Positions 2,487 through 62,760 of a DNA stretch of 64,000 nt are shown here, piece after piece. This DNA comes from a phage. A model generated the notes under the pieces. The model ran no database searches. It saw only the letters and a list, made by a program, of their open reading frames with translations, and was not told the DNA's origin. The stretch lies in assembly GCA_020241125.1 (NCBI GenBank), contig GCA_020241125.1_4708.1; one strand, given 5' to 3'. Position 1 is the first letter of the stretch; every line of letters begins with the position of its first letter. The position numbers and the translations under genes were made by a program.

Positions 2487-2517
2487 GATTGAAATCTCGC
2501 TGGCTTACTTCACTTAA

Positions 2518-2534
2518 GTAATATAGCCGTGAAA
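2518..2534 (-). promoter_or_regulatory. candidate phage early promoter (minus-strand TTTCACGGCTATATTAC)
   Basis: Exact 17-mer repeated at 15116-15132; contains TATATTAC; 32 nt upstream of the start at 2486. Confidence 0.45.
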
Positions 2535-2636
2535 AATGTTGGATTAAGTTAAATACCGCAACCGCAGCTAATTTTATAGGCTTTTAGCCTAAACCAATCA
2601 TCTTCGGAATCATCATCTTTGAAACAGGAATCTATC

Positions 2637-4107: not shown

Positions 4108-4139
4108 CATCCTCCCAACCCGTAAGGGAAGGGAGGATG
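4108..4139. terminator. conserved two-tier hairpin, family copy 1 (bidirectional)
   Basis: CATCCTCCC-AACCC-GTAA-GGG-AA-GGGAGGATG between convergent genes 3795-4103 and 4157-4786. Confidence 0.7.
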
Positions 4140-12992: not shown

Positions 12993-13104
12993 GGTAGGTT
13001 CCTCTTGATAGTGGTTGATGATAGTAACGGGGACGGCGATGTCCCCTTGGTTTCTTATTGCCCCGCCCGAACCCGATGGGGTACAGGCGGGTGATGTTGA
13101 TGCG

Positions 13105-15064: not shown

Positions 15065-15078
15065 TCACTTAGGTAACG
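15065..15078 (-). promoter_or_regulatory. TTACCTARGTGA motif, degenerate copy
   Basis: TCACTTAGGTAACG resembles the exact 16-mer found at 43272-43287 and 51447-51462. Confidence 0.3.
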
Positions 15079-15115
15079 CTTACGCGTCGCGTTCATGATA
15101 CCATGCATCATGAAG

Positions 15116-15132
15116 GTAATATAGCCGTGAAA
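15116..15132 (-). promoter_or_regulatory. candidate phage early promoter, second exact copy
   Basis: Identical 17-mer GTAATATAGCCGTGAAA (plus strand) upstream of the leftward small-gene cluster. Confidence 0.45.
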
Positions 15133-15367
15133 GGATTTGTGTTAACGCAAGGGTTTTGTTTGTTTTTTAAGAAGGGATGGATTTAGAAGAGGTGTTTCAA
15201 GGAAGGTAAACGAGAATAGGTATTTTGATTTAAGTAAGATGTTATCTGTATCCGTTAGAAGTGTATTGTCTAAGTTATCTTGTTTATCTTAGGTTTAATC
15301 GTTTTTATCTTGGTATGTTTAAGTTGTTTTTATTTAACTGTTAAAATGCTTATCTTCAAAACAATGG

Positions 15368-15422
15368 ATAACATGTGTTTACTACGCTCGTTGAGTTATA
15401 ACTCAACGGTAACACATGTCAT
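15368..15422. repeat. nested palindrome
   Basis: Perfect 20-bp palindrome CGTTGAGTTATAACTCAACG (15389-15408) flanked by inverted arms AACATGTGTT and AACACATGT. Confidence 0.6.
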
Positions 15423-15811
15423 CTGTGCATTACACTACGTTACATGCTAGTTAAATCGGATAACTCAAAAAAACATTTGTGATACTCTTCTTCACGTTGT
15501 TCATCAGAGTATCTCGTCTATACTCATTGCATTCGTATACGACATAACCGTTACACGCTAACGCTACGCTTATAGCTTGATAACTCTAAGGATAAAAACA
15601 TAAACTCGCTTCGCTCGTTTAGTTTTTCTTTTTCTTAGAGTTATCCTGTTGCTCGTCTCTAAAGGACTTCGCTCCTCCCCCGTCCCCCGAAGGGGCCGAG
15701 GTCGTGGAAATTTTACTTTCCAAATACATTTACAACATCTGTAAACTTTTACTCCAGGTACTTAATCTTATCATTAGAAATTATAAAAGAGAAAATAAAC
15801 ACAAACATAAA

Positions 15812-15846
15812 CCTTCCCCCGACCCGTAAGGGAAGGAGGAAGGGAG
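15812..15846 (-). terminator. conserved hairpin, family copy 3
   Basis: CCTTCCCCCGACCC-GTAA-GGGAAGGAGGAAGGG, 9 nt 3' of the stop of 15855-16748. Confidence 0.65.
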
Positions 15847-27767: not shown

Positions 27768-27799
27768 CCCTCCTCCAACCCGTAAGGGAAGGAGGAGGG
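27768..27799. terminator. conserved hairpin, family copy 4 (bidirectional)
   Basis: CCCTCCTCC-AACCC-GTAA-GGG-AA-GGAGGAGGG between convergent genes 26477-27757 and 27809-28714. Confidence 0.7.
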
Positions 27800-36867: not shown

Positions 36868-36902
36868 CCTTCTCCCCAACCCGATGAGGGAAGGGGAGAA
36901 GG
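36868..36902. terminator. conserved hairpin, family copy 5
   Basis: CCTTCTCCCC-AACCC-GATGA-GGG-AA-GGGGAGAAGG with perfect 10-bp outer stem; A9 run at 36847-36855. Confidence 0.7.
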
Positions 36903-39849: not shown

Positions 39850-41646
39850 TCAATCGATTATGTCGTGATCGTTAATTTCTACAATTTCTTCATCGAATCG
39901 ACCGACGTCTTTCTTCAAGCCTGCATTGGTTGCTGCAACGTCATTTGCAATTTGTGGGGTAATGATTAACCGACCGCGCTCATCGATAGGTGCGTACATA
40001 CTGAACTTCTGACGTCCGGTTGGTTCGGAGTGTGGAAGATTCAGATAGCTTGCACAGAACGGGATGGAACCACTAACCAAACGACTCTCGTCAGCCAATG
40101 CAGCACCGCCTGCGTTTTGGCTCTGGAGAACAACATGCGTGCTCACTTTGAACAGCATGCAATCACCTGGTGACTGAATCGATGTTGCCACTTTCTCACG
40201 TTTATCACGATTGCTCTGGATATTGAGAATCGCTTCCGTTGCAACTTGATTTCGCAACGCCTTCTGTACATCGCGATTGGTCATCTCTTTACGGTTGTTC
40301 TGTCGTTTACCACGTTCTGTGGTTTTAAGATGGAACCCCAGTTTAAAGATGCTCTTACGCACATCCTCCATGACATATTCCAACACCATCAATTCCTTAC
40401 CGAACATCGTCGTGGTATCAACACGACTCATTTCGATAGTGACATTGTCAATCAGATACGCCATAAATTCGTAGAAGTCGTCGCAAGGAATATTTTCCTG
40501 TTTGAACTTCTTCTGCTGAATCTCGTCAACGTAAAGATCGAGACTGTCGATGTGGTGATTTACATCACGTAACAAACGCGCATCCGCGTTGTTGTTATTA
40601 AAGATAATCAAACCGAGTAATGTACGCCAATGGTCTGGCGCATTCGCGAACTCCTCAACCGGATAGTCTTCCGGAAAACGATCGTAATAACGGTCGATGA
40701 GATACAAGAATGCACCGACAAGGCCAAGAACAATACGTTCCGTGCCTCCGCGTCTTACAGCAATTTGAATATCAGGATGTTTGTAACGTACAGCGCTAGC
40801 GCTACGGCTTTTACCGCTTTTGCTGATACTAAAGCCTTTAGGAATAACCCCCATGGTGCGATAGATTACCCATTGGTCACGCGGAAAATCGCGTTCAGCA
40901 AGGTTCCGTCCGGTTACGGCTTCGACACCTGCAAAACGTCGGAAACACTCACCCACCCCATACTTCGCAAAGAGATAGTGACCCAGTGTGGTTACGCTGG
41001 TGTGGTTGATGTTGTCACCGTTCACTTTACTTTGTTTAGTAAGATGGTAGATTTGCGACCAGGGTAACGACAGGTAATGACGATAATCGATACCGGTCGG
41101 TGTATCATTGCTCAGGAACTGATACGGTGTACGTTTAACCGTGATTTTGTCACGCGGAAGCATGATGAACGCCATGTCTTTCGTGTAACTGATTACCGGG
41201 TCAGCGAGCACTGCACTGAGAATGAAGTTCGCACCACGTAGACGCATTTTACCACCCTGACCTACCGCGGGTAATAGGAGAGGATGTCGGATAATGCAGT
41301 AGTCCTTTCCGGGTTCACGACGGTCACCTGATTCCATCGCGCCGTACCAGCGGAATTCTAGCATCACCATAAACACATCGGATGGCGCAAGGTCGAAGGT
41401 CAGCTTACCGCTATCCTTCCCTTTGGTTTTCTTTCCTCCGCTTAAGTAGTGGAACTGTTCGCGGGCCATACAGCGACGCAGGCCATGATACACCAGATCC
41501 TTAGGTAAACTATCTTTGCTGTTCCGCCAAAGACGATCAACATAGGACTCAACATCTTGCATCTTATCGACGACGATGTTGCGTGCTATCTTCTCGTTCA
41601 TCTTCGGTGCAAGCCCAGCGACAGCTTTGCAGAATCTAGGATCCAT
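39850..41646 (-). CDS. hypothetical virion-module protein (598 aa)
   Basis: ORF 39850-41649 begins with GTG; ATG 41646 with AAGGAG RBS. Confidence 0.75.
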   Translation of the reverse strand: MDPRFCKAVAGLAPKMNEKIARNIVVDKMQDVESYVDRLWRNSKDSLPKDLVYHGLRRCMAREQFHYLSGGKKTKGKDSGKLTFDLAPSDVFMVMLEFRWYGAMESGDRREPGKDYCIIRHPLLLPAVGQGGKMRLRGANFILSAVLADPVISYTKDMAFIMLPRDKITVKRTPYQFLSNDTPTGIDYRHYLSLPWSQIYHLTKQSKVNGDNINHTSVTTLGHYLFAKYGVGECFRRFAGVEAVTGRNLAERDFPRDQWVIYRTMGVIPKGFSISKSGKSRSASAVRYKHPDIQIAVRRGGTERIVLGLVGAFLYLIDRYYDRFPEDYPVEEFANAPDHWRTLLGLIIFNNNNADARLLRDVNHHIDSLDLYVDEIQQKKFKQENIPCDDFYEFMAYLIDNVTIEMSRVDTTTMFGKELMVLEYVMEDVRKSIFKLGFHLKTTERGKRQNNRKEMTNRDVQKALRNQVATEAILNIQSNRDKREKVATSIQSPGDCMLFKVSTHVVLQSQNAGGAALADESRLVSGSIPFCASYLNLPHSEPTGRQKFSMYAPIDERGRLIITPQIANDVAATNAGLKKDVGRFDEEIVEINDHDIID

Positions 41647-41685
41647 CACACACTCCTTTCAGAAAGTTGCTTAAGCAGATTAAAG

Positions 41686-43128
41686 TTACTTTTTCGATGA
41701 CACTTTCTCAAGAATCTTGAAAAAGGTCATACCTATACCGACAACGGCCGCGGTTATGCTCGCAGCGGCTTTCCAAACATCGACGTTACGTTGACGTCGC
41801 GCTTCTTCCGCTTCACGTTGTCTTTTTGCCTCTTCATCACGTCGACGTATCTCAGCAGCAAACTCGTCGTGCTTACGTTTGGATTCTTCGTCTCGACGAC
41901 GAAGTTCAGCGACGAATTCTTCATGTTTGCGTTTAGCCTCGTCGTCACGACGTTTTAAATCAGCTTGATAATCTTCGTGTATTTGTCTACGTAGATCATC
42001 TTGACGCTTCATTTCGGCTTGGTGTTGTTCCATCCTACGTTTTTGTTCGTCTTTAAGCTGATCGAGTTCGGCTTTATGTTGTTCATCACGCAGCTTTGCG
42101 TCGGCGCGATGCGCCTCATGCATCTGTGCGATAACTGCCTTGTGTTCATCCGCCATACGTCGCATTTCAGCCATCACCCCTTTAAGGGTTTCTTCTGATG
42201 CCTTACGTTCGTAGCTACGTTGGTCGAAATCATTTTTGTAGGCTTCTTTTTGGATGGGGTCGCGCCAATGCAATGCCGATTCACGTGTCGGAAAAACATT
42301 GTACTTCCACATCTCTTTTTCCAAATCTTCGACCGGTACGAAGATGGAGTCATTATTCCCGAAGGTAACCAACATACCTGGCGCGCCTGCTCCATTCGTT
42401 GGTTTTATTTCGAACGCTTTCCCCAACACGTTAACCCATAAGCTATACGGATTATGAAAGTCGGGCGGCGTCCAATGGATAGTGAGTTGCGTTCCGAGAA
42501 TCCGGAAACCCTCTGTTTTTCCCGTCAAGCTCCGCGCGCACGTTGCGATGTAGGGGTGATCAATCCCTTTCGTAACGTGGTCTGCGCTTTTGTATTCTCC
42601 TTTAACTTTTACGATTGCCACGTTGATTTGCGCGACATAAGCGGGTTGATTAAAGTTCAGCGTGTTGAGGTCAATTTGACATATCTCATCCAGCGTATCG
42701 TACCAGTCTTGCTGGTCTAATAGACGCGGCATTTTCTCAGCGTTAACAATACGACGGATATGCGGTTTCCTTATCGCGTAACCTGTACCGTTTTTAACAC
42801 GGAGTATATCCCGACGTCTACCCGCGTAGACGAAGTTTCTGAATGCACCATTCGCATTAGATACGTCATGGCTGTCAACTATTACAGGACTACGAAATTT
42901 TGAACGTCGTACGATCCTGAATGTATTGCCGTCCTCAACCCTACCAGGAATGTACTGGAACATATTGTCGGAGGTGATAACCAACACGGTATGGCCAGAT
43001 TCATTAATACATGCCCATCCTAATTCCAGGTCATATAACGGTTCAGCATAACCGTCAATGCGATAAGCGTGCGTACCATCCCACGGTTCGAACGCGGTAT
43101 CACATATTGGCATGGAGGGCATCGTCAA
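41686..43128 (-). CDS. protein with C-terminal charged coiled-coil repeats and terminal TM helix (480 aa)
   Basis: GGAGG RBS; C-terminus has RRRDEEAKRKHEEF-type repeats then AAASITAAVVGIGMTFF. Confidence 0.75.
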   Translation of the reverse strand: MTMPSMPICDTAFEPWDGTHAYRIDGYAEPLYDLELGWACINESGHTVLVITSDNMFQYIPGRVEDGNTFRIVRRSKFRSPVIVDSHDVSNANGAFRNFVYAGRRRDILRVKNGTGYAIRKPHIRRIVNAEKMPRLLDQQDWYDTLDEICQIDLNTLNFNQPAYVAQINVAIVKVKGEYKSADHVTKGIDHPYIATCARSLTGKTEGFRILGTQLTIHWTPPDFHNPYSLWVNVLGKAFEIKPTNGAGAPGMLVTFGNNDSIFVPVEDLEKEMWKYNVFPTRESALHWRDPIQKEAYKNDFDQRSYERKASEETLKGVMAEMRRMADEHKAVIAQMHEAHRADAKLRDEQHKAELDQLKDEQKRRMEQHQAEMKRQDDLRRQIHEDYQADLKRRDDEAKRKHEEFVAELRRRDEESKRKHDEFAAEIRRRDEEAKRQREAEEARRQRNVDVWKAAASITAAVVGIGMTFFKILEKVSSKK

Positions 43129-43271
43129 CCTCCATCAGATTGAAAACTATCACGCATAATACATTTCCCTTTTCTTGTTCTTATCGAGCCGACAGCCGAC
43201 GGTTTCAGCATCGTTCCTAGCGCGAGAACGACCTTACGTGTTGTCTATGCCTTATTCATCGCAGGCGTCTG

Positions 43272-43287
43272 TCACCTAGGTAATGTA
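43272..43287 (-). promoter_or_regulatory. conserved 16-mer TCACCTAGGTAATGTA (candidate promoter or operator)
   Basis: Exact repeat of 51447-51462; about 145 nt upstream of the start at 43128, just after a family hairpin. Confidence 0.4.
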
Positions 43288-43330
43288 AGCGTCAAATTTT
43301 TTCTATTCGCAACAATAAACGGCATAGAAA

Positions 43331-43360
43331 CCTCCCCCAACCCTTGCGGGCTGAGGGAGG
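43331..43360 (-). terminator. conserved hairpin, family copy 6 (variant loop), 3' of the capsid candidate
   Basis: CCTCCC-CCAA-CCC-TTGC-GGG-CTGA-GGGAGG. Confidence 0.6.
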
Positions 43361-43459
43361 CTGACTTATGTATCACGGTGCCGGATGAATGTCCGGTGCA
43401 ATGAAACCATCCGCAACGTTGTCGTCAAGAATATCATCCAACGAAGCAGCTACGGTAGT

Positions 43460-45682
43460 TCAGTTAGTCTGAACAGGCAGCTTGATGTTTTCAGTGTAGA
43501 CCTTACGCAGGTTCACAACGTTAATCAGACCCAGCAGCGGGCAGTTGTTAACGAAGCGGCAGCGCGGCTGAACCATGGTTTCTTTAGAAACCTGACCGTT
43601 ACGGGTAACCTGAGCAACAGATACCAGTTCCGGTACATACAGGAACATACCGAAGGTCAGCGGATCCGGAGAACCCTGGATACCACGAGACAGGGTCACG
43701 AAGATCTTATCGCGCAGCATGACGTTCGGGTTATCTACAACTACGAAGTTGAAGCTTACACCAACGGTACGGAAATCACCATCGGTCTGCAGGAACTGCG
43801 GGATGTAGTTGTCAGTTGCTACTACGCAACGCGGTTTCTCATCAGCGTTGGAAGACAGCAGCTGCAGAGCTGGCTGATAACCAGACTCGGAGTACATGCG
43901 GTATGCCATCTCACGAATCACGTTCATGATCGCAGCAGACACTTCAGCACGACGTTCTGCAGTGGTGGTACCCTGAACAGATTTCTCCAGGTCCAGATTG
44001 ATTTCTTCGAACCACGGACGGATCAGGTAACGACCGAAACCTTCGATCTGGATGTCACCGAACTGACGGAAGCGAGAGGTCGCAACCGCTTTCAGTGCGT
44101 CTTTGTAGCTGAACAGTTTCTCAACCATCAGGTTGTCGAAACGTGCGTTAGCAGCTTGGATCAGAACGTCCAGGTCAGCAGCGTTTTCTTCCCAATCCAG
44201 CGGACGAGGAATGGAGAACGGAGCCAGCAGGCCGATTGCGTAACGTTCTTGCTTCATGTTGAAGTCAAGGTGCTTACCGCGCTCACGACGGTTGCTGTTG
44301 TTACGGCGGATACGCAGTTCGTAACCAACCAGTTTGAAGCTCAGGTCTTCAGCCAGTTGTTTGAACTCTTCGCTCTTACGCGGTTGTTCGATGTTGTCCT
44401 GATCAACCAGGCGATACAGTTCAGCGTTAGCGCCGTTAACACGCAGACCGGCTTTCTCTACGTTGGAAGAACCGTAAACTTCGATCGCCAGCTGAGCAGC
44501 AGATTTCGCATCGATGATGTCCTGCAGCGCTTCAGCTTTCGCGCCTTTAACGTCTTTGGTGTTCTCATCAACGAAGATGGAGTGGGTGTCGAACGCCAGG
44601 GTCATTTTGCGGAAGTCGCCTTCCAGGGATTTCTGGAAACCGTTGGTGATCAGACCAGATACGTCGAACGGTACGTAAGAGGTTTTGCTGTGCTTGGTAG
44701 ATTTGATTTCCACCAGGATTTTGGTCAGCGTGATCTGGGCGTCCAGCGCGTCGGTGTTGTCGCTGTAACCGTTAGCCAGGATGCTATCGTCTTCAGCAAT
44801 ACCGATCATGTCGATCAGTTTATCAACAGCCAGGTAAGACGTTTTGTAAGTTACGCCTTTAATTTCGATGTCGCGCGGAGCAACGATAGCTTTGTCAACG
44901 AAGTACTGTGCGTTAGCATCGTCAGCACGATAGATCGGATGCAGATCGGTCACGTCGTTGGACAGAACGTCGTTGTACATGAACGCATCCAGCAGCGGAC
45001 GACGTACCCAATCAGCCGGAGTACCGTCAGCGTTACGACGCAGGTGGTTGAACACCAGCGGACGACGGAAAGATACGTCGTAACCGATCTGGTTCGGAGC
45101 CAGAACGATGGTGTTGTACAGTTCGTTACCCATGCGGCTCAGACGAGAAGCCTTCACGTTGAACACAACGGAGTACGGCATCATGTCACGCAGTTCTTTC
45201 TGGTCGTAGGACAGCTGAACCAGTTCTTCAGATTCGCAACCGCAGGAATCAGCAGCCATCATGACGAAGTTAGAGCTGTCAACTTCACGGCCAGACGGAG
45301 TGGTGCTGATGTTCATGGAACGTGCTTGTTTAGCATATTCTACCGGGTTACCATGAGCCAGCATGATCAGTGCTGCTGCACGAGCCTGCTGTGCGTTCAT
45401 GGTGAACAGCTGTTCTTCAATACGCTGCTTCTCTTCCGGAGTGGTGGTTTCGAAGCCCAGCATGGACAGAACCGGTTCTTCGGCTTTACGGATGTCGCTG
45501 CTGAAGCTCTTAACATCCATTTCGTTAACCAGTTTGTCCATGGATTTGAAATCAACCTTAGAAGCAGATTCCATAGACAGGAAGGTGTTCTCCAGACCTT
45601 TGTCTGCTGGTTTGCTACCATTAGCGGTCAGGAACTGGCGAGTGGCCGCGACCTGTTGGCTAAGAAGGGTTTTATCATTCAT
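43460..45682 (-). CDS. candidate major capsid protein (740 aa)
   Basis: Strongest codon optimisation in the window, so the plus-strand ORF 43385-45685 is an antisense shadow; AAAGGA RBS; size fits jumbo-phage capsid proteins (recollection, not verified). Confidence 0.6.
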   Translation of the reverse strand: MNDKTLLSQQVAATRQFLTANGSKPADKGLENTFLSMESASKVDFKSMDKLVNEMDVKSFSSDIRKAEEPVLSMLGFETTTPEEKQRIEEQLFTMNAQQARAAALIMLAHGNPVEYAKQARSMNISTTPSGREVDSSNFVMMAADSCGCESEELVQLSYDQKELRDMMPYSVVFNVKASRLSRMGNELYNTIVLAPNQIGYDVSFRRPLVFNHLRRNADGTPADWVRRPLLDAFMYNDVLSNDVTDLHPIYRADDANAQYFVDKAIVAPRDIEIKGVTYKTSYLAVDKLIDMIGIAEDDSILANGYSDNTDALDAQITLTKILVEIKSTKHSKTSYVPFDVSGLITNGFQKSLEGDFRKMTLAFDTHSIFVDENTKDVKGAKAEALQDIIDAKSAAQLAIEVYGSSNVEKAGLRVNGANAELYRLVDQDNIEQPRKSEEFKQLAEDLSFKLVGYELRIRRNNSNRRERGKHLDFNMKQERYAIGLLAPFSIPRPLDWEENAADLDVLIQAANARFDNLMVEKLFSYKDALKAVATSRFRQFGDIQIEGFGRYLIRPWFEEINLDLEKSVQGTTTAERRAEVSAAIMNVIREMAYRMYSESGYQPALQLLSSNADEKPRCVVATDNYIPQFLQTDGDFRTVGVSFNFVVVDNPNVMLRDKIFVTLSRGIQGSPDPLTFGMFLYVPELVSVAQVTRNGQVSKETMVQPRCRFVNNCPLLGLINVVNLRKVYTENIKLPVQTN

Positions 45683-45831
45683 TGAAAGTATCCTTTACAG
45701 AATTAACTTATATAAGTCGGTCGATAGACCATAGCGTACACGCGTGCATGCGCCACTATAGTATCAGTAAACACTTACCGTTATTGAGGTCGTGATACAA
45801 CACTAAAAATGCCGCATAACTTTTCCCTACG

Positions 45832-46452
45832 TCACAAACGACGCAGGCGATAATGGATGGAACGATTGGTGCAATATGAACGGAACAGCGGCAATTGCGC
45901 AACTTCCGCAAGACTCATATTAATTCGCAGGTGTTCAATAACGGCGCTGTAGTTATCAGCAATACGATCGCTCAATAACTCTTCTGCCAATAAAGGAAGA
46001 CAATCGACAACAATCGCGATCACATCCTCATTAACATAACGCACCCGAACACTCAACGGACGTTTGTCTGGGCTGTAAGTTGGATCCGCCAAACGACGTT
46101 CAATATCACGCGGATAGCTCGTCAGTAAATGGTAATAACCATTGTCATAACGATTGATGTACTCACACAGCACATCAACATTCTTCTCTGGCGGCAAACC
46201 TGTTTCGTCATAGTGATACGCAAACATACCACCAAGCAGGTTGTTAAGATGAACCGCAGGGTTCGCTTGTTCGTGTTCTTTCGTGATGAAGAAAGGCACG
46301 TTCTGGGCTGCGAAATAAAAACCTACATCATTGGGCGATAGTATGCCGAAAAGACTTTTAGGGTCTAATAACACCTGTAAGTCATCACGCGCATTTCGAA
46401 TAATCGCGTGTTCTACCCAATTCGGAACGACGAGATATCGGAGTTCCTTCAT
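45832..46452 (-). CDS. hypothetical protein (206 aa)
   Basis: ATG 46452 with AGAGG RBS; immediately upstream of the capsid candidate. Confidence 0.65.
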   Translation of the reverse strand: MKELRYLVVPNWVEHAIIRNARDDLQVLLDPKSLFGILSPNDVGFYFAAQNVPFFITKEHEQANPAVHLNNLLGGMFAYHYDETGLPPEKNVDVLCEYINRYDNGYYHLLTSYPRDIERRLADPTYSPDKRPLSVRVRYVNEDVIAIVVDCLPLLAEELLSDRIADNYSAVIEHLRINMSLAEVAQLPLFRSYCTNRSIHYRLRRL

Positions 46453-46491
46453 TATGATTACCTCTTTGCAAGTATCGAAAGGATTGAGTCG

Positions 46492-48102
46492 ATGGACCCA
46501 AAACAGATAGCCATTAAGATTATTACGTTACTGTTTCGTAATGCACAATTGAACCATCCCGATCCCAGTACGATCGAACATGTTAAATCCGTCTTAGATA
46601 AAGTCGAACCCCCGAAAAACCATCTCGCTACAGACGTAGATAGAGAGGTTTTCAACAACCTGATGAATACCATTCATTGGATGTTGGAACAACCATTATC
46701 GGAACCTTTCGATAAACAACAGTTGTTACAAAGGATACGTTTGGATTGCCTTGAACAAAGCAATCTTTACGAGATTCTTGCCGACGGACTGTACGATATC
46801 GAAGACGACGCTCATATCAGTAAGGTCTGTTCACTCTATTACAACGAATTACGTAATCTGATTACCCGTCGTCGTGTTTTCGAAACCTTTAGAAACACGT
46901 ACATGGATATCAGTAACGGGCGACTTGGGGATAAAGAATTTTTCGATGCAATGGCGAATCTGAAATTATCGCTAGACAGTATCGAAATGGATACCGAAAA
47001 TCCCGAAGAGATGTCGTGTATGATTGACGGCTTTATCGCTGACAGCGAAGACGATATCGAGAAAGTCGAACGTATGTTCGTCAAAGCGATGGAACGTAAC
47101 AGTCCTGAAGGTGGATTTGTAACCGGCTGGCAAGGCTTTAATAAAATGTTGGGGTCGGTCGGTGTTTTACGTCGCGGTACCTTAGGACTGATTGGTGCAA
47201 TGCAGCACCGGAACAAGTCAGGCGTGTTGTTAAAACTGTTCACACATCTGGCATTGTACAACAAACCCCATTTCTTTTTCCCGGAGCGAGCAAAGAAAGC
47301 ATTACTGATTCATTTGTCGACAGAAAACGAAGTGGAAGAAAACACGCTTCAGATATACAAGAACATGCGAGAACAGGAAACAGGCGAATATGTCGATATT
47401 CGTAAGATTGACCCTCGCGAGGCATCACGTTATGTGTTGAAGGTGTTCAACGATGCGGGTTTCTCTGTTTGTATGCGTCGTGTTGATGGGATGAGTTATA
47501 AACAACTCGCTAATCTCATCGACCATTTCGAACGCATGGGTTATGAAGTCATGGCGTTGTTCATTGACTATCTGAAAATGTTCTCATCGGAAGGGCTGGA
47601 TAGAAATGGACCGACCGGCGCATGGCTCCAAGAACTCTTCAACAAAGTCCGTAACCTCTGCAGTGTTAAACGTATTTTAGGCATGACCGTACACCAGCTG
47701 TCATCCGATGCGAAGATGCGTGCACGTGATGGCAACGATGAAGAGTTTGTTGACCAAGTCGCAGGTTTAAGTTACTGGGATGGTTGTAAAGGGATTGACC
47801 GTGAGATTGACCTTGAAGTGATTGTTGATATCGTTAAGGAACCGGGCAAACGTCAAAGCTGGCAAGTCTTTGCATTAGGGAAAGACCGTCAACCGGATAA
47901 CGGTTCAACGAAACCTGAAGACAAACACTTCGCAATGCCATTCCAAACCATCGGGATGCTTCCTGATGATTACGGTAAGAAAGCAGTGTATTGCCGCAAG
48001 GTTGGCGGACAACCTGTCTCCGAGGGAGGTAAAGGTCCGTGGAACAAGTTCGATGAAAACGCAGCACCGAGTAATGAATTACAATTTGATTTAGAATTTT
48101 AA
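46492..48102 (+). CDS. possible DnaB-like (SF4, RecA-fold) helicase
   Basis: ALFIDYLKMF resembles DnaB H2/Walker B (hhhhDYLQLM); degenerate Walker A-like LIGAMQHRNKSG; QLSSDAKMRAR resembles the H3 region; start taken at ATG 46492 (ORF opens at 46408). Confidence 0.45.
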   Translation: MDPKQIAIKIITLLFRNAQLNHPDPSTIEHVKSVLDKVEPPKNHLATDVDREVFNNLMNTIHWMLEQPLSEPFDKQQLLQRIRLDCLEQSNLYEILADGLYDIEDDAHISKVCSLYYNELRNLITRRRVFETFRNTYMDISNGRLGDKEFFDAMANLKLSLDSIEMDTENPEEMSCMIDGFIADSEDDIEKVERMFVKAMERNSPEGGFVTGWQGFNKMLGSVGVLRRGTLGLIGAMQHRNKSGVLLKLFTHLALYNKPHFFFPERAKKALLIHLSTENEVEENTLQIYKNMREQETGEYVDIRKIDPREASRYVLKVFNDAGFSVCMRRVDGMSYKQLANLIDHFERMGYEVMALFIDYLKMFSSEGLDRNGPTGAWLQELFNKVRNLCSVKRILGMTVHQLSSDAKMRARDGNDEEFVDQVAGLSYWDGCKGIDREIDLEVIVDIVKEPGKRQSWQVFALGKDRQPDNGSTKPEDKHFAMPFQTIGMLPDDYGKKAVYCRKVGGQPVSEGGKGPWNKFDENAAPSNELQFDLEF

Positions 48103-48106
48103 ACGC

Positions 48107-48163
48107 AAAAAAAAAAAAAGATTGTGCGGTTCCCTCCTCCAACCCGTAAGGGAAGGAGGAGGG
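48107..48163. terminator. conserved hairpin, family copy 7, with A13/T13 run
   Basis: CCCTCCTCC-AACCC-GTAA-GGG-AA-GGAGGAGGG (48132-48163) plus A13 at 48107-48119; between convergent genes. Confidence 0.75.
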
Positions 48164-48179
48164 GTTATGACCGCTTTGA

Positions 48180-48506
48180 TTAACTTATTGTCATGAATTC
48201 ATTAGGTGAAAATTTCCAGCCGTTCTCGGTGAGAAGCGTGTTGAGTTTCGCTGCAACGATAAGCCATGCGTGCATGGCTGTTACATCGTATTGGCGATTC
48301 ACTCGACGTTGGTTTTCGATATTGATTTGCTCCTGTTCAGTGATGTTTGGATAAAGTGCGATAGCGCTAGGTTTACCCAGCGCGCTAGTCATCACCGCCG
48401 TACATTCACTGATAATGTTGTTTAAGTGGTAGTTATACACCGTTCCACGCATGACGCGATGACGGCATTCGATAATAGCGTCGTAAATGATTTCTCGAGT
48501 AATCAT
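48180..48506 (-). CDS. hypothetical protein (108 aa)
   Basis: Intact ORF; followed by conserved hairpin 48132-48163 and T13 run. Confidence 0.55.
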   Translation of the reverse strand: MITREIIYDAIIECRHRVMRGTVYNYHLNNIISECTAVMTSALGKPSAIALYPNITEQEQINIENQRRVNRQYDVTAMHAWLIVAAKLNTLLTENGWKFSPNEFMTIS

Positions 48507-48512
48507 GATAAT

Positions 48513-48914
48513 TTAAAACATACGGTCGTTTTTAGCACGGGCGTCCATTACCAGATCGTAGATGCCTGCGGTTCGTAAGCACTCTTCGTAGTAACGATGT
48601 GTGCCTTCCTCAGCCATCCACGATAACCCTCGGCTATCCGCAACGATAACCAGTTTGTTATTGTTGAACGCACACACCACACGGTATGTCGCGTTGTTAT
48701 TCGGATCGCGAGTGATGAGTTCATAGACGCCGTTAACAGGTTTACTGAATTCGCCGTTTAACGGAACGAGTTCGGTAGTACCTTCAGCAAACGTTACGTT
48801 GATCGGTGATGGATCTTTAGCGATAACAGTATATTCCACATTGTGTTCTTTACTGGTCATAATACCGAAGTAAGAACTCACAGGGGAACGCGGTACACTA
48901 AGAATATTAAACAT
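48513..48914 (-). CDS. hypothetical protein (133 aa)
   Basis: ATG 48914 with AGAGGA RBS. Confidence 0.6.
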   Translation of the reverse strand: MFNILSVPRSPVSSYFGIMTSKEHNVEYTVIAKDPSPINVTFAEGTTELVPLNGEFSKPVNGVYELITRDPNNNATYRVVCAFNNNKLVIVADSRGLSWMAEEGTHRYYEECLRTAGIYDLVMDARAKNDRMF

Positions 48915-48984
48915 AAATGTTGTCCTCTTAATTGGATTTAGATTGTTGGGTATGTGATTGGGAAATGAAAACGTTGTTTCGGTT

Positions 48985-49554
48985 TTAGACGATGAGTGAC
49001 CAGGTAGTAAGCACCCCGCTTGCGAATTCGAGCTTAAGACGTTTACCGATAAGTTGTTGCTGGATCATCTTCTCGGTGATACGTCGATCATGCTGAACCG
49101 CTTTATCAAACGCTTCTTTCGCTTCAGCTTGGTAGAAGTTCGTTTCTTCGTTTTCGTCGATCTCTTCGAGAGCATCGTCGTCGATGTCAGCAAGTTTCAC
49201 TCGACCGTTTTCATCAGGTTGTTCTGCAGGTTCATTGTCATACGGCGTGTCTTTTGTTGGTGCGACACGATGTTGCAACTCGACCTGCGTTAACATGATC
49301 TCCATCTCACCATCGATAGGAATGATTTCATCGGCGCTGCCGTTTTCGGTCAACTCTCGACTTTCCAGTAATGTCGTCGTAACAGAGAACACCTCTTCAA
49401 CAGGAACCTCATCATCGTCGATAGTGTTAACCGTATTGCTGGTAACTTCGGCAACGACCATCAAATCGAATGCGTGAGGATCGCCTGGCATTTTGATTCC
49501 TGGAAGTTTGTTGAGGTACCAAGGATCGAGAATCATGATTTCTGGATTGAACAT
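48985..49554 (-). CDS. acidic hypothetical protein (189 aa)
   Basis: Intact ORF, strongly D/E-rich. Confidence 0.6.
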   Translation of the reverse strand: MFNPEIMILDPWYLNKLPGIKMPGDPHAFDLMVVAEVTSNTVNTIDDDEVPVEEVFSVTTTLLESRELTENGSADEIIPIDGEMEIMLTQVELQHRVAPTKDTPYDNEPAEQPDENGRVKLADIDDDALEEIDENEETNFYQAEAKEAFDKAVQHDRRITEKMIQQQLIGKRLKLEFASGVLTTWSLIV

Positions 49555-49629
49555 CGTTTTTACCTTTCTATGTTAGGTGGGTTGCGGATAGAAGAATCAA
49601 TGCATAGACTGATTTAAGTTTGTTAAGGT

Positions 49630-50532
49630 TTACTTAGTCTTCGAGTTACAAGGACTGACATGTTGTTGTACTCGTTGAATCGTATCGTAGTACGGGTTAG
49701 ATTGGTTGAACATGCTGTTGTGTGGATGATAGCCGTATGGCGCATTTTGCCTTGTTGATGAGAAACCTTGTTGAGAAGGACGATTTGAATTAACCGCGAG
49801 TACGTAGTAAACCAAATTTTGACGGTCGAACGTTCCTTCGTTTTTGAAGGTGTCGGCGTAGGTGTTTATCGCTGGAGCGAGTCTATCACCATCGGCGGTA
49901 ATAATTGTACCGTCTGGGTAAACTTCACGAACGACGCACCATGTTCCGATAAGAACGTCTTTGGGCGGCGTATTGCCGTATCCGGTTGTAACGGTAAGGT
50001 AAGTATCGAACCCTTCAGAACAACAAGGATGACGATAGATAGGTCCTGTCATTTCCGTTCTATCGGTATCGTCGCATTTCTCTATCGAGAGCGATGGTGT
50101 GTCGGTTTTGAAATTGTCAAATTCTTTCTTTAAGTCGATTACAGGTTCTTTCGTATAGTACTTCTTGATTGCTTTGACGTAAAGATCAGGAACGGTTGTC
50201 AGCATTCCGTTATACCTGATTCTCAGGTTTTCGAGTAATCCAAAGATACTCGCGCATGCTTGTTCGCGAGGTTTTGTAAGATAAGAGATCCCCCCAGGAA
50301 CGCTGGGATCTTTGAGAAAGAAGATTGCGTTATTGTCGTTGTGCAGTGCGTTGAAGAAAACGATTGATTCGATATATACGGAGCATAGGCTGTCGTTGGC
50401 GTCGTCAGATAACACCCAGATGCACTCATCGGTCGTCTTGTTTAAAAGTTCTGTTTTGTCCACCAAACGTTGTTTCATTGCGAGGAAATGTGCCTGTTGT
50501 TCAGCGGATAATTCACGATAAATAGTGGTCAT
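49630..50532 (-). CDS. hypothetical protein, tandem paralog of 50618-51391
   Basis: ORF 49630-50610; ATG 50532 with AAGGAG RBS; IYRHPCCSEGFDTYLTVTTGYG ... VREVYPDGTII aligns with IYIHPECHTTYDRYLTITGG ... IREIYPDGRIV. Confidence 0.7.
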   Translation of the reverse strand: MTTIYRELSAEQQAHFLAMKQRLVDKTELLNKTTDECIWVLSDDANDSLCSVYIESIVFFNALHNDNNAIFFLKDPSVPGGISYLTKPREQACASIFGLLENLRIRYNGMLTTVPDLYVKAIKKYYTKEPVIDLKKEFDNFKTDTPSLSIEKCDDTDRTEMTGPIYRHPCCSEGFDTYLTVTTGYGNTPPKDVLIGTWCVVREVYPDGTIITADGDRLAPAINTYADTFKNEGTFDRQNLVYYVLAVNSNRPSQQGFSSTRQNAPYGYHPHNSMFNQSNPYYDTIQRVQQHVSPCNSKTK

Positions 50533-50617
50533 GTTGAGCTCCTTGATTACGATAAGGATGATTGCGGTTTTGTGATGCTGGTAGGGCCCTAAACAAAGGA
50601 GCCCTACCAATATTGGG

Positions 50618-51391
50618 TTACTCAGGATCGGCGTAGAAATGGTGAGGATAGCCGGAGTACGATCCCGCGTTACCGGCTATGGATTCTTTCTGGGAATCGA
50701 CGACGAGCGCATAGAACTGTCGGGAATTTGTTAGCGTTGAGAAATAAGCGGAAAGGACTTTTTCATTCAACGCATCGCAAGGTAGACAGGTGCGACCGCA
50801 AAACGTCACGATACGGCCGTCGGGATAGATCTCACGAATCATTCTCCACTCACCGATATCCACTGGTGATGGCGCTGCTACACCACCTGTTATCGTTAAG
50901 TAACGATCGTACGTGGTATGGCATTCAGGATGAATATAGATCGGCTTGTTCGTTTCGACAGGTTCCGAAGTATCTCGACGACTAAGAAGCTCAACGACTT
51001 CAAGATAAATCGTTGGTAGATCGCGGAGAATACCGGTGCTACGACGTTTCTTTGTGATTCGCGGACGAATCTCGTTGAGAGCGTATTCGAGCTTACGTTC
51101 AGCTTCGTACGCATCGAGTTTTATCAGGCGACCCGGTTCATCGGAATGATCCTGAGTTACGTAAACGAAATACGCGTTGCCTTTTGCAGCGTGAAAGATT
51201 CGAGCGACCTTAAATGTTTCTACGGTACGATACCCAAGGCGCGATTGATTTTCCACAGGAGAAAATATCCAATGTCGTCCTTCGTCCGCCTCAACAATTT
51301 CGTTGAAACTATCCGTTTGTTCTGGGACCTGGTAGTCAGCCATTAATGTATCAAGAGCGTCGTCAGCCAGTTTGATGTAAATATCTGTCAT
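50618..51391 (-). CDS. hypothetical protein, tandem paralog of 49630-50532
   Basis: ORF 50618-51604; ATG 51391 with GAGGAT RBS; promoter-like motif and inverted repeat just upstream. Confidence 0.7.
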   Translation of the reverse strand: MTDIYIKLADDALDTLMADYQVPEQTDSFNEIVEADEGRHWIFSPVENQSRLGYRTVETFKVARIFHAAKGNAYFVYVTQDHSDEPGRLIKLDAYEAERKLEYALNEIRPRITKKRRSTGILRDLPTIYLEVVELLSRRDTSEPVETNKPIYIHPECHTTYDRYLTITGGVAAPSPVDIGEWRMIREIYPDGRIVTFCGRTCLPCDALNEKVLSAYFSTLTNSRQFYALVVDSQKESIAGNAGSYSGYPHHFYADPE

Positions 51392-51424
51392 GTTTGTATC
51401 CTCGGCTATTAAGAGAAATTTACA

Positions 51425-51462
51425 GTGATAACAGTAACCGTTGTTATCACCTAGGTAATGTA
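51425..51462 (-). promoter_or_regulatory. conserved 16-mer plus adjacent 9-bp inverted repeat
   Basis: GTGATAACA-n8-TGTTATCAC (51425-51450) overlapping TCACCTAGGTAATGTA (51447-51462); about 35-70 nt upstream of ATG 51391. Confidence 0.4.
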
Positions 51463-51495
51463 GTCGCGAAATAAACTGGGTTAGACAGTATATGA

Positions 51496-51527
51496 CCCTC
51501 TCCCAACCCGTAAGGGAAGGGAGAGGG
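51496..51527 (-). terminator. conserved hairpin, family copy 8
   Basis: CCCTCTCCC-AACCC-GTAA-GGG-AA-GGGAGAGGG, 5 nt 3' of the stop of 51532-52899. Confidence 0.7.
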
Positions 51528-51531
51528 AATA

Positions 51532-52899
51532 TTAAACGGTTGGACGAACAGTATTGTCTTTTTCTGGTGCAATCCATAACGTGACTGTACCATGGCATGT
51601 CCACTGCGGTTCACGCACAGAAGAACCTGCCATTGTAACAGCGCAATCGGTACGCATGATAACCCCGTATGCTTCGCAGAGATTGTTATCCTGCATCCAC
51701 ACAACTTTAGCGGGCATGCCAGGATACAACAAATCCATGTTTGCGTATTCCCACACCAACTGCATCGTTCTACCGCGTAATCCGGCAGTATTGCTTAATT
51801 CACGCCATCGGTTATCGGTTACGCGTCCCATCCCTTTCGCCACTTTCACGTTATCGCTACGTTCTTCAGTTACGTACTCGCTAACGTTTACGGTACGACT
51901 GATGATCGTATCACCCCCTTTTGATAATGTCATTCCCTGACTCATCTGACTTGCCGAAACAAAACGCCCACCCGCATTACCTAACAACGAAGCCGCGTTA
52001 TTGATGTCGCTTACCGACGCCCCTCTCGTACACGCAATTTCCACGTATTTGTCACGATTGATCCAGGTCTTGTCCATGCCCGGAAACATATCGGCAGGAT
52101 AGTTGTAAAAGATCGCCGTGCGCCGACCGTCAGAGAAACGGGTTTCGTCGTATAAGGGGTAGATATACAGATACGGGGATTGATAATAACAACCGACGTC
52201 AGCTGAATAAATACCGACCTGGTTCTGTATTTTATCTACGAGATCCATCGCATTGGTACCGTGTGGAAGAATAAGCAACTTGAATGGGTTGTCGTTATTC
52301 GGTGCAACAATATCCACACCCTGCATTTTGAATCCGGTGTCAGCTTCAACCGCAGAAAGTATCTTGCTGAATTCAAGTCGCAGTACATCCAGCACTTTCG
52401 ACCCAGTATAGTTCTCACCGGTTTCTGATTGCATGAAGCTTTCAAGAACAGGATCGAACAGTTGAAATTGAAGATCGACCATTTGTTCGTAGTCTTTCTT
52501 CGAAGAATCGGTTGCGGTACGTTCGTCGGTAGCGGACATACGACTGTCTACGGTTGTTAAACAAACCGCTCGGTAGACGTAAGCTTGTGCGGCATCGTCT
52601 ACGGTTTGGCGTTGTCCGCGCATCAGGCTGTACGCCTGCACGATGATGCGCATTTTAAGTTGTTGTTGGTACGGTAGAATGTATTTTCCGTAACTGCCGG
52701 GCGGGAACTTTACAGAGATATAGAGTTCATCTCCAGCGTTACGTTCATAGTCTCGATACGTGTGGACTTGAGTCACTAAAGGAACAGACACCGTCATTGA
52801 CGGCGTGATTAATTCCGCGGTGACTTTATACGCAACAGCAACTGCTTCCTGCGCAAATGTACCGATATACCGTCCTAACGGCGTCTGTTTGTAATCCAT
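51532..52899 (-). CDS. hypothetical virion-module protein (455 aa)
   Basis: Intact ORF with ATG 52899; followed by conserved hairpin 51496-51527. Confidence 0.75.
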   Translation of the reverse strand: MDYKQTPLGRYIGTFAQEAVAVAYKVTAELITPSMTVSVPLVTQVHTYRDYERNAGDELYISVKFPPGSYGKYILPYQQQLKMRIIVQAYSLMRGQRQTVDDAAQAYVYRAVCLTTVDSRMSATDERTATDSSKKDYEQMVDLQFQLFDPVLESFMQSETGENYTGSKVLDVLRLEFSKILSAVEADTGFKMQGVDIVAPNNDNPFKLLILPHGTNAMDLVDKIQNQVGIYSADVGCYYQSPYLYIYPLYDETRFSDGRRTAIFYNYPADMFPGMDKTWINRDKYVEIACTRGASVSDINNAASLLGNAGGRFVSASQMSQGMTLSKGGDTIISRTVNVSEYVTEERSDNVKVAKGMGRVTDNRWRELSNTAGLRGRTMQLVWEYANMDLLYPGMPAKVVWMQDNNLCEAYGVIMRTDCAVTMAGSSVREPQWTCHGTVTLWIAPEKDNTVRPTV

Positions 52900-52901
52900 G
52901 T

Positions 52902-53507
52902 TTAACGACCCCGTTGCTGTTGTTGAATGATGAATTCTTCGATCTTCGTACCACGGAATTCGCTGTGACGAACCGCTTGCAGTTGCTCTTCAACGGTTGG
53001 GCCTGCATTGAGACCACCACGACGTGCGCGGTTGATGCCGATTTTACGGCGCTGACCGATTTCACGTAAACGTGAAGATAATCCGCTCATTTCGGTTGGG
53101 TCTTTAATGCGACCGCGTGCAACGTTCCACAGACCACCCATGAACTCTTCGAGGATACGGCTGGCTTCGAGAGACGGTACGCGCGCGTTAGGGTCGTTTT
53201 CGAGATTGTATTTAACGTATTCCGTATGTTCCAGAAGAAGCATGAACATCTTCATGGCGTTCACGTCAGGATTTGCAATACGCATAGGAACACCACGAGA
53301 ATGTTTTTCAGCAGCCTGCGGTACGGTAAGCTGTGCGGGCACCTCTTCGTTCATGGCCATATCGTCGATTTCTGCAACCCCTGAAGAGTAGACGCCGCTG
53401 ACCTCATTGGTGTAATTGTCCACCATGAATTTACGGGGAATCCAGAATTCGAATTTACGTTCAAATAGACGTTTGGTTGGGGTACCTTTAACGTGTTGTA
53501 GACTCAT
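52902..53507 (-). CDS. hypothetical protein (201 aa)
   Basis: ATG 53507 overlaps the upstream stop as ATGA. Confidence 0.65.
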   Translation of the reverse strand: MSLQHVKGTPTKRLFERKFEFWIPRKFMVDNYTNEVSGVYSSGVAEIDDMAMNEEVPAQLTVPQAAEKHSRGVPMRIANPDVNAMKMFMLLLEHTEYVKYNLENDPNARVPSLEASRILEEFMGGLWNVARGRIKDPTEMSGLSSRLREIGQRRKIGINRARRGGLNAGPTVEEQLQAVRHSEFRGTKIEEFIIQQQQRGR

Positions 53508-62728: not shown

Positions 62729-62760
62729 CCTTCCTCCAACCCAACAGGGAAGGAGGAAGG
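62729..62760 (-). terminator. conserved hairpin, family copy 9
   Basis: CCTTCCTCC-AACCC-AACA-GGG-AA-GGAGGAAGG, 3' of 62771-63922. Confidence 0.7.

Follow-up and report, generated by a model that had tools for sequence, protein, structure and literature searches.

Early promoters of phages that carry an RNA polymerase in the virion

The closest described counterparts of the element analysed here are the early promoters of phages that bring an RNA polymerase into the cell within the virion. In coliphage N4, this enzyme belongs to the single-subunit, T7-like polymerases, and it recognises its promoters by a DNA hairpin ahead of the start. According to PMC4496689, it transcribes the early genes from phage-specific promoters, a likeness to the Goslar-type phages treated below, which are set apart from N4 by a multisubunit polymerase and a linear-sequence motif. 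Among phages of the phiKZ type, a conserved AT-rich motif centred at about -10 has been described upstream of the early operons of every such phage, and in phiKZ and phiR1-37 transcription starts 6 nt downstream of this motif (PMC7598289). Primer extension, RNA-seq and dRNA-seq have placed 28-32 early sites on the phiKZ genome (Ceyssens 2014, Wicke 2021), and the phiKZ "consensus early promoter" is listed in PMC12676376 (Table S1) as tatattaaaaaaaatttaagatgTATATTACaaatgtG, also written TATATTAAAAAAAATTTAAGATGTATATTACAAATGTG. An early motif is found at the primary transcription start site of the shell protein gene chmA (PHIKZ054), and the subunits of the non-virion RNA polymerase are likewise expressed from early promoters; PHIKZ123 is one subunit of the solved phiKZ enzyme (7ogp). 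For Bacillus phage AR9, early promoters of the form ...TATATTAT-(6N)-G+1 have been reported, given as AAATATATATTAT-(6N)-G+1 in PMC5312081.

A conserved block around two identical 16-mers

The window, that is, the whole stretch of 64,000 nucleotides analysed here (contig GCA_020241125.1_4708.1), is assigned by megablast to Escherichia phage Goslar, a 237-kb nucleus-forming jumbo phage of the Chimalliviridae. Nucleotide identity to Goslar is about 97% (98.9% over the 3 kb tested, 95-99% in the searched region and 86-97% window-wide). The window contains exactly two copies of the 16-mer TCACCTAGGTAATGTA (plus strand), as the first-pass annotation had reported and an exact search confirms (Table 1). 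Nearly all genes of the region are encoded on the minus strand, where the 16-mer reads TACATTACCTAGGTGA, parsed as TACATTAC-CTAGGT-G-A. A mismatch search of the window and the Goslar genome reveals the 16-mer as the 3' part of a conserved block of about 40 nt, in which an A/T-rich upstream element of about 23 nt is followed by TAYATTAC, YT, three variable bases and TGA.

We propose, with a probability of roughly 0.88, that the 16-mer represents the core and initiation region of an early promoter for the virion RNA polymerase (vRNAP) of the Chimalliviridae (phiKZ-type phages). Recognition by the vRNAP, the exact start nucleotide and the early timing are inferred from sequence comparison. In the proposed scheme, a multisubunit, sigma-less vRNAP injected along with the DNA would recognise the A/T-rich upstream element (about -37 to -15) and the core TAYATTAC (-14 to -7), and RNA synthesis would start at the minus-strand G six bases past the core (predicted +1 in Table 1).

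Table 1. Coordinates of the promoter sites, hairpins and associated features (window positions unless Goslar is named).
Feature	Position	Strand	Details
Site 1	43272..43287	minus	core TACATTAC 43287-43280; spacer CTAGGT 43279-43274; predicted +1 G 43273; A 43272; next start codon 43122; predicted 5' UTR 151 nt
Site 1 upstream element, A-tract type	43288..43310	minus	GCGAATAGAAAAAATTTGACGCT; parallels phiKZ AAAAAAAATTTAAGATG
Site 2	51447..51462	minus	core 51462-51455; predicted +1 G 51448; exact match; PWM score 49.2; next start codon 51391; predicted 5' UTR 57 nt
Site 2 upstream element, second type	51463..51485	minus	TCTAACCCAGTTTATTTCGCGAC
Site 3	15109..15146	minus	upstream element + TATATTAC-CTTCAT-G; core starts 15123; predicted +1 G 15109; heads gp021-homologue operon; ATG 14984; predicted 5' UTR 125 nt
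Site 4	2511..2548	minus	upstream element + TATATTAC-TTAAGT-G; core starts 2525; predicted +1 G 2511; heads gp004-homologue operon; ATG 2486; predicted 5' UTR 25 nt
Partial copy TTACCTAAGTGA	15065..15076	minus	3' half of motif only (TTAC-spacer-TGA)
Terminator-like hairpin before site 1	43329..43362	minus	-30 kcal/mol; z = -5.3; 41 nt to core
Terminator-like hairpin before site 2	51496..51527	minus	-25.9 kcal/mol; z = -4.8; 33 nt to core
Hairpin family loci	4114-4128, 15818-15832, 27774-27788, 43336-43350	minus	
Hairpin family loci	48138-48152, 51502-51516, 62735-62749, 13066-13081, 36875-36889	minus	
Predicted 5'-terminal stem-loop, site 2 transcript	51427..51448	minus	GAUAACA-loop-UGUUAUC from +1
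Site 1 operon	39850..43122	minus	gp040 homologue 41686-43122; gp039 homologue 39850-41646
Orphan ORFs downstream of site 2	49630..51391	minus	50618-51391 and 49630-50610; not in Goslar
Goslar predicted +1, 1st-7th	2553, 15053, 43252, 49718, 86691, 113783, 142786	minus	
Goslar predicted +1, 8th-13th	160777, 166055, 172964, 187625, 201930, 226681	minus	

A single exact 16-mer pair in 64 kb is near chance, and it is the context that carries the significance. When the window is shuffled with a first-order Markov model, about 2 16-mers are repeated (maximum 8); the real window holds 69, which stem mostly from paralogous tail-fibre-like genes, the promoter family and a hairpin family described below. 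For the relaxed pattern TAYATYAC-N5-TG, 0.49 exact matches would be expected in the window and 4 are present, a number reached by 1 of 100 shuffles. All four matches lie on the minus strand between ORFs, 25-151 nt upstream of a co-oriented start codon, so that the position ahead of the next gene start, noted earlier for the 16-mer copies, applies to 4/4 family sites. The first-pass annotation had listed the two exact copies and a degenerate one; the sites at 15109-15123 and 2511-2525 are full family members that it had missed. One-mismatch matches to the core pattern are at chance level in the window (15 found, 14.3 expected), and weaker promoter variants were accordingly set aside.

A position weight matrix (PWM) spanning -30 to +20 returns exactly 13 sites, scoring 31-56, in the 237-kb Goslar genome and 4 in the window; since the matrix was built from the same 13 sites that it recovers, these scores are circular, and the informative results are the empty gap between scores of 12 and 31 in the Goslar genome and the independent comparison with phiKZ. 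Relative to the core, A is conserved at -20 and -15 and the whole stretch from -9 to -3 is conserved, with TTT(C/G)A at -9 to -5, while the T-G at core +14/+15 is invariant (13/13 Goslar sites, 4/4 window sites). Two core variants are used: TACATTAC occurs twice in the window and at 6/13 Goslar sites, TATATTAC twice in the window and at 7/13. Every Goslar and window site lies on the minus strand, and no plus-strand gene carries the motif. Inspection of the annotation places each of the 13 Goslar sites upstream of the next gene and in its orientation, with predicted 5' UTRs of 25-152 nt, and all are intergenic except one that is overlapped by the small CDS gp047. In Goslar (NC_048170.1), the annotated gp047 (49584-49772) starts upstream of the putative early promoter at 49717-49732 and spans both promoter and leader; this CDS is probably mis-called, and a conserved ATG is present about 56 nt below the predicted start. 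A pattern scan of IMG/VR yielded matches in two Goslar-like genomes. Four other IMG/VR matches, each a single hit on an unrelated contig without the downstream TGA, were judged to be chance occurrences.

Against this background, a functionless origin of the repeat, by chance or as the scar of a duplication or mobile element, has a practically negligible probability. One exact 16-mer pair is within expectation for 64 kb, and site 2 does lie near an indel boundary relative to Goslar; however, the 13 family members are strictly ordered in position and orientation, conservation of the motif extends across genera, and the indel boundary coincides with the start codon, 57 nt below the 16-mer, and not with the motif. 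Upstream of the core, the flanks of the two copies are unrelated, with the A-tract type at site 1 and AACCCAGTTTATTTCGCGAC at site 2. Because the upstream elements are of two types and identity ends at the core, the two copies are, as judged from their flanks, not a recent duplication; both are simply close to the family consensus TAtATTACcTAGGTGA.

Architecture and variation of the sites

Site 1 is an exact match with a PWM score of 48.5, and its A/T-rich upstream element is present as GAAAAAATTTGACGCT, comparable to the T-rich or A-tract element found in phiKZ-type early promoters upstream of about -19 (Wicke 2021), giving the full reading AGAAAAAATTTGACGCT-TACATTAC-CTAGGT-G. Orthologues of site 2 are found in Goslar and in two IMG/VR relatives. 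At orthologous sites in close relatives, TAYATTACYT and TGA are kept and the 3-nt spacer varies, with CTAGG, CTAGA, CTTAG and TTACG all observed; the Goslar orthologue of site 2 carries CTAGA. Site 1 provides no footprint information of its own, because the surrounding stretch is nearly identical in all three available relatives. Since the spacer changes freely at orthologous sites while TAYATTACYT and TGA remain fixed, the comparison identifies TAYATTAC, about 20 nt upstream of it and the downstream TGA as the conserved elements and argues that CCTAGG is not the recognition core. The 12-mer TTACCTAGGTGA, which had been put forward as the core, accordingly has to be redrawn: it spans the core end TTAC, the partly variable spacer CTAGG and TGA. 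CCTAGG itself lies in the spacer; its first two bases agree with the conserved YT, and the three after them are variable. Across genera, the consensus is TATATTACnTAGGTGA.

The near-palindrome TCACCTAGGTGA/TTACCTAGGTAA could alternatively be the operator of a dimeric DNA-binding protein, for example one that turns off early transcription, and would then overlap or replace the promoter. Such an operator would account for the palindromy of TTACCTAGGTGA at 10/12 positions, matched by TTACTTAAGTGA at 2511, and for the recurrence of the CTAGG spacer at 2/13 Goslar sites, at window site 2 and at three sites of one relative. Most family members, however, are non-palindromic (CTTCA, CTTTG, CTTCC, CTAAC, TTACG), palindromy being limited to the CTAGG and TTAAG spacers; the spacer switches freely at orthologous sites, and CTAGG, as the consensus spacer of the family, would recur in any case. 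We therefore consider an operator very unlikely.

Two flavours of the upstream element are seen both in Goslar-type phages and in phiKZ. The first is the A-tract type (GAAAAAAATTT...); the second has the form ATTCAAACATATTTAAACAG in phiKZ, and in Goslar it reads AAYCCAAC...TTTCACGRC. Two conserved subclasses of promoter may be indicated by this.

Comparison with described promoter classes

The phiKZ consensus, ...AAAAAAAATTTAAGATG-TATATTAC-AAATGT-G, has the core, the 6-nt gap to G and the A-tract/TTT upstream element in common with the sites described here. Of its 38 positions, 29 are identical at the Goslar chmA site and 24 at window site 1. In the first 50 kb of phiKZ (1-50 kb), no 8-mer is more enriched in front of genes than TATATTAC, and the phiKZ sites share both the layout and the upstream element. 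The chmA promoters can be compared directly, with GAAAAAAATTTGAGATT-TATATTAC-TAAATT-G in phiKZ and GAAAAAAATTTCAGGGT-TATATTAC-CTAGGT-G in Goslar. More broadly, TATAT(T/C)AC-(6N)-G is found upstream of chmA in phiKZ, PhiPA3, RAY, Eowyn, RSL2, Proteus phage 10 and Goslar, which represent seven genera; the G at the predicted initiating position is present in the six genera in which the aligned stretch extends to it. The shell proteins of PhiPA3, RAY, Eowyn, RSL2 and Proteus phage 10 are only about 22-25% identical to that of Goslar. Further likeness to phiKZ lies in the location of sites before chmA and before genes of non-virion RNA polymerase subunits, and in the presence of two upstream-element flavours in both phages. 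In contrast to phiKZ, the Goslar-like upstream flanks are richer in G+C (TTTCACGRC), an extra YT follows the core and an A follows the G. The number of sites also differs (13 in Goslar, about 30 in phiKZ), and the Goslar-like starts are predicted whereas those of phiKZ are mapped. AR9 resembles the Goslar-type phages in an AT-rich core ending in ...TATTAY, followed by 6 N and an initiating G (a predicted one in the Goslar-type phages), in the centring of this core at about -10 and in an injected multisubunit RNA polymerase. It differs in a core that is longer and purely A/T, in another upstream element and in its uracil-containing genome, and it is not a chimallivirus.

A promoter for the host RNA polymerase can be weighed on the same sequences, with TATATT/TACATT as the -10 element and TTGACG at site 1 as the -35 element for sigma-70 of E. 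coli. TATATT does agree with TATAAT at 5/6 positions, and TTGACG is located 2 nt upstream of the site 1 core. This very position is wrong for sigma-70 spacing, as only 2 nt separate TTGACG from TACATT, and at a distance of 17 nt beyond TTGACG the hexamer reads ACAGAC. A consensus scan of 41000-53000 finds no pair of TTGACA-like and TATAAT-like hexamers 16-18 nt apart at either site, which upholds the earlier remark that the element does not resemble sigma-70 boxes. The conserved AC that ends the core, the YT and the TGA at the start are not sigma-70 features. The same motif serves phages of Pseudomonas, Erwinia, Ralstonia, Klebsiella and Proteus, and phiKZ development has been reported to be independent of host RNA polymerase. 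The host-promoter reading thus has very little probability.

Two further promoter types were considered and set aside. The SP6 promoter is ATTTAGGTGACACTATAG, of which site 1 shares TAGGTGACA. This resemblance to an SP6/T7-type promoter was rejected as coincidence, because it does not extend beyond the variable spacer and start region of site 1, and the reading at site 2 is TAGGTGATA; the Goslar annotation includes no single-subunit RNA polymerase. On the plus strand, TAATGTA resembles phiEco32-type sigma promoters, a candidate that was dropped in view of the minus-strand location of all genes and all family members. The idea of a phage-specific promoter, raised in the first-pass annotation, is supported by the match to the phiKZ early consensus, by the motif upstream of chmA in seven genera and by the operon below site 1, which contains a gene for a non-virion RNA polymerase subunit.

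Gene context of site 1 and the hairpin family

Within the site 1 operon, the gp039 homologue is a PHIKZ123-type subunit of the non-virion RNA polymerase (PDB 7ogp_E, E = 4e-40); it also matches phrog_2943, "polymerase" (E = 1e-119), and the Goslar annotation agrees. The gp040 homologue has no Pfam, PHROG, NCBIfam or significant PDB matches. Directly upstream of site 1 lies a strong hairpin, followed by the major capsid protein gene (43460-45682, minus strand), which behaves as a late gene in the Goslar RNA-seq. As a late capsid unit here meets an early unit, a terminator and an independent early promoter would be required at this junction. A 766-aa ORF on the plus strand (43385-45685) runs antisense to the whole major-capsid gene and is probably a codon-usage shadow ORF.

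The gene content of this operon also bears on whether the sites could be middle or late promoters of the non-virion RNA polymerase instead of promoters of the virion enzyme. Both enzymes are phage-encoded and sigma-less, and chmA of phiKZ has both an early and a middle promoter. The motifs do not fit, however: the phiKZ late motif is TATG, with the G as start, and the window sites (...AGGTGA, ...TCATGA, ...AAGTGA) have no TATG at the conserved G, while the phiKZ middle motif, a weak AT-rich/TACT element at about -22 to -24, is likewise not matched by the window sites. The motif instead equals the phiKZ early consensus. Moreover, site 1 would drive the gene of a subunit of the non-virion enzyme, the first expression of which cannot depend on the same enzyme. 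Transcription of these sites by the non-virion polymerase is therefore improbable.

For the vRNAP early promoter, the context in Goslar is similar. A family member lies 66 nt upstream of chmA, and the gene for the non-virion RNA polymerase beta' subunit is next after chmA. The Goslar RNA-seq paper shows the chmA start in a figure in which the sequence begins 91 nt upstream of the ATG; the predicted start, 66 nt upstream of the ATG, falls inside this stretch, which is compatible with the prediction and not decisive. [quoted passage not shown]

The hairpins preceding sites 1 and 2 belong to a family, CCC-N4-GGGTYGGR, that has 9 loci in the window (7 exact and 2 with one mismatch; 10 overlapping matches) against 1.76 matches expected. 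All loci are on the minus (coding) strand, with folding energies of -22 to -30 kcal/mol and pyrimidine-rich and G-rich arms around CCC-tetraloop-GGGTYGGR. Because most of these hairpins have no U-tract, a simple terminator scan misses them; presumably they are terminators for the phage polymerases. In the proposed scheme, the strong hairpin 33-41 nt upstream would terminate the preceding unit, at site 1 the late major-capsid gene, and each terminator-promoter pair would mark the boundary between a late or structural unit and an early one, both lying on one strand. A family hairpin just upstream had been claimed for each 16-mer copy, which is correct for both exact copies and fails for the degenerate copy near 15065, about 740 nt from the nearest family hairpin. 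The alternative suggestion of a re-initiation element invokes a special mechanism that the layout does not call for, since a terminator with an independent promoter behind it accounts for what is seen.

The 150-nt leader below site 1 folds no better than its shuffles (z = +0.47), and a structured 5' UTR or riboswitch at this position was rejected on this value and on the lack of any Rfam match in the window. The 151-nt leader of the gp040 homologue contains a 10-codon upstream ORF, ATGCGTGATAGTTTTCAATCTGATGGAGGTTGA (43125-43157, minus strand), which includes the Shine-Dalgarno sequence of the gp040 homologue and has its stop 2 nt before the ATG at 43122; translational coupling of this ORF with the gp040 homologue is possible.

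A partial copy and its neighbourhood at 15 kb

The degenerate copy noticed near position 15065 is real in the sense that part of the motif is present there. It comprises only the 3' half, which was duplicated when a 43-nt insertion arose in the 5' UTR directly below the start region of the complete site at 15109-15123, as an alignment with Goslar and the IMG/VR relatives L008 and L011 indicates; the copy occupies the 3' end of this insertion. Without the TAYA of the core and without an upstream element, this partial copy is probably inactive.

The insertion itself (15066-15108, in the 5' UTR of the gp021 homologue) is common to the IMG/VR relative UViG_3300011560 and missing in Goslar. It is flanked by a 12-nt direct repeat of the promoter 3' half, TTACCTTCATGA / TTACCTAAGTGA, an arrangement that resembles a target-site duplication. 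Between the promoter at 15123 and a family hairpin, about 700 nt of AT-rich DNA (15130-15800) contain no ORF, several hairpins or inverted repeats based on GATAACTC/GAGTTATC and a perfect 20-nt palindrome at 15389-15408. This stretch could be an origin-like or non-coding RNA region; the Rfam search of the whole window, this stretch included, returned no match.

Stem-loops at the predicted RNA 5' end

The transcript from site 2 is predicted to begin with a stem-loop (Table 1), and the underlying inverted repeat is kept in Goslar and in the relative L017 despite nearby substitutions. The predicted fold of the first 40 nt begins at nucleotide 1 at 8/13 Goslar sites, compared to 25.5% of control windows (p = 0.006), and this enrichment in the folding predictions fits the predicted G being the RNA 5' end. 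The stability of the first 40 nt of the transcripts is that of the background (Mann-Whitney p = 0.19), and only the +1 position of the hairpin is enriched. Across genera, a +1 stem-loop is predicted in 6/7 chmA leaders (including L028-L033), with unrelated sequences; it was found in only 3/7 phiKZ early sites tested, so that the feature is frequent and not universal.

That the +1 stem-loop is a functional part of chimallivirus early mRNAs, as opposed to a by-product, is a reading of low probability. If it were functional, it could act as a 5' cap-like structure needed for transcript survival or, more speculatively, in the recognition of the mRNA or its export from the early-infection vesicle or the phage nucleus. 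Promoter and 5' hairpin would then form a portable early-expression module, which would fit the cassette swap below site 2.

At that position, 1.77 kb of the window (49614-51386) have no Goslar counterpart, seen as a blastn gap in place of which Goslar has about 80 bp. The two-gene cassette contained in it is also missing from L017. Its junction lies directly after the conserved promoter, the 5' hairpin and ATGAC, and the upstream neighbour of the L017 hairpin differs as well; the module of hairpin, promoter and leader thus has the look of a conserved junction, with accessory genes on either side that can be exchanged. Searches with the two orphan ORFs gave no Pfam, PHROG, NCBIfam or significant PDB matches and no DNA match in the phage collection.

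Implications for Goslar-type phages

The promoter class and its bioinformatic detectability are already well established, and no new mechanism is revealed here. For Goslar-type phages, no description of the motif was found in the searchable Goslar literature, and the Goslar RNA-seq paper uses neither the word "promoter" nor the word "motif". That study reports 175 genes as on at 5 min; 13 promoters are few for this number, which implies either very long operons or divergent early promoters missed by the PWM.

What results is a catalogue of candidate early promoters for Goslar-type E. coli jumbo phages, with 13 sites in Goslar, 4 in the window and a predicted start nucleotide for each. Such a catalogue can be used to define early operons, to design knock-ins under native early promoters and to interpret the polarity of knock-downs. 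Because core-(6N)-G is almost unchanged across phages with such divergent shell proteins (only about 23-25% identity), the comparison suggests that the way in which the virion polymerase recognises promoters is of ancient origin and under tight constraint.
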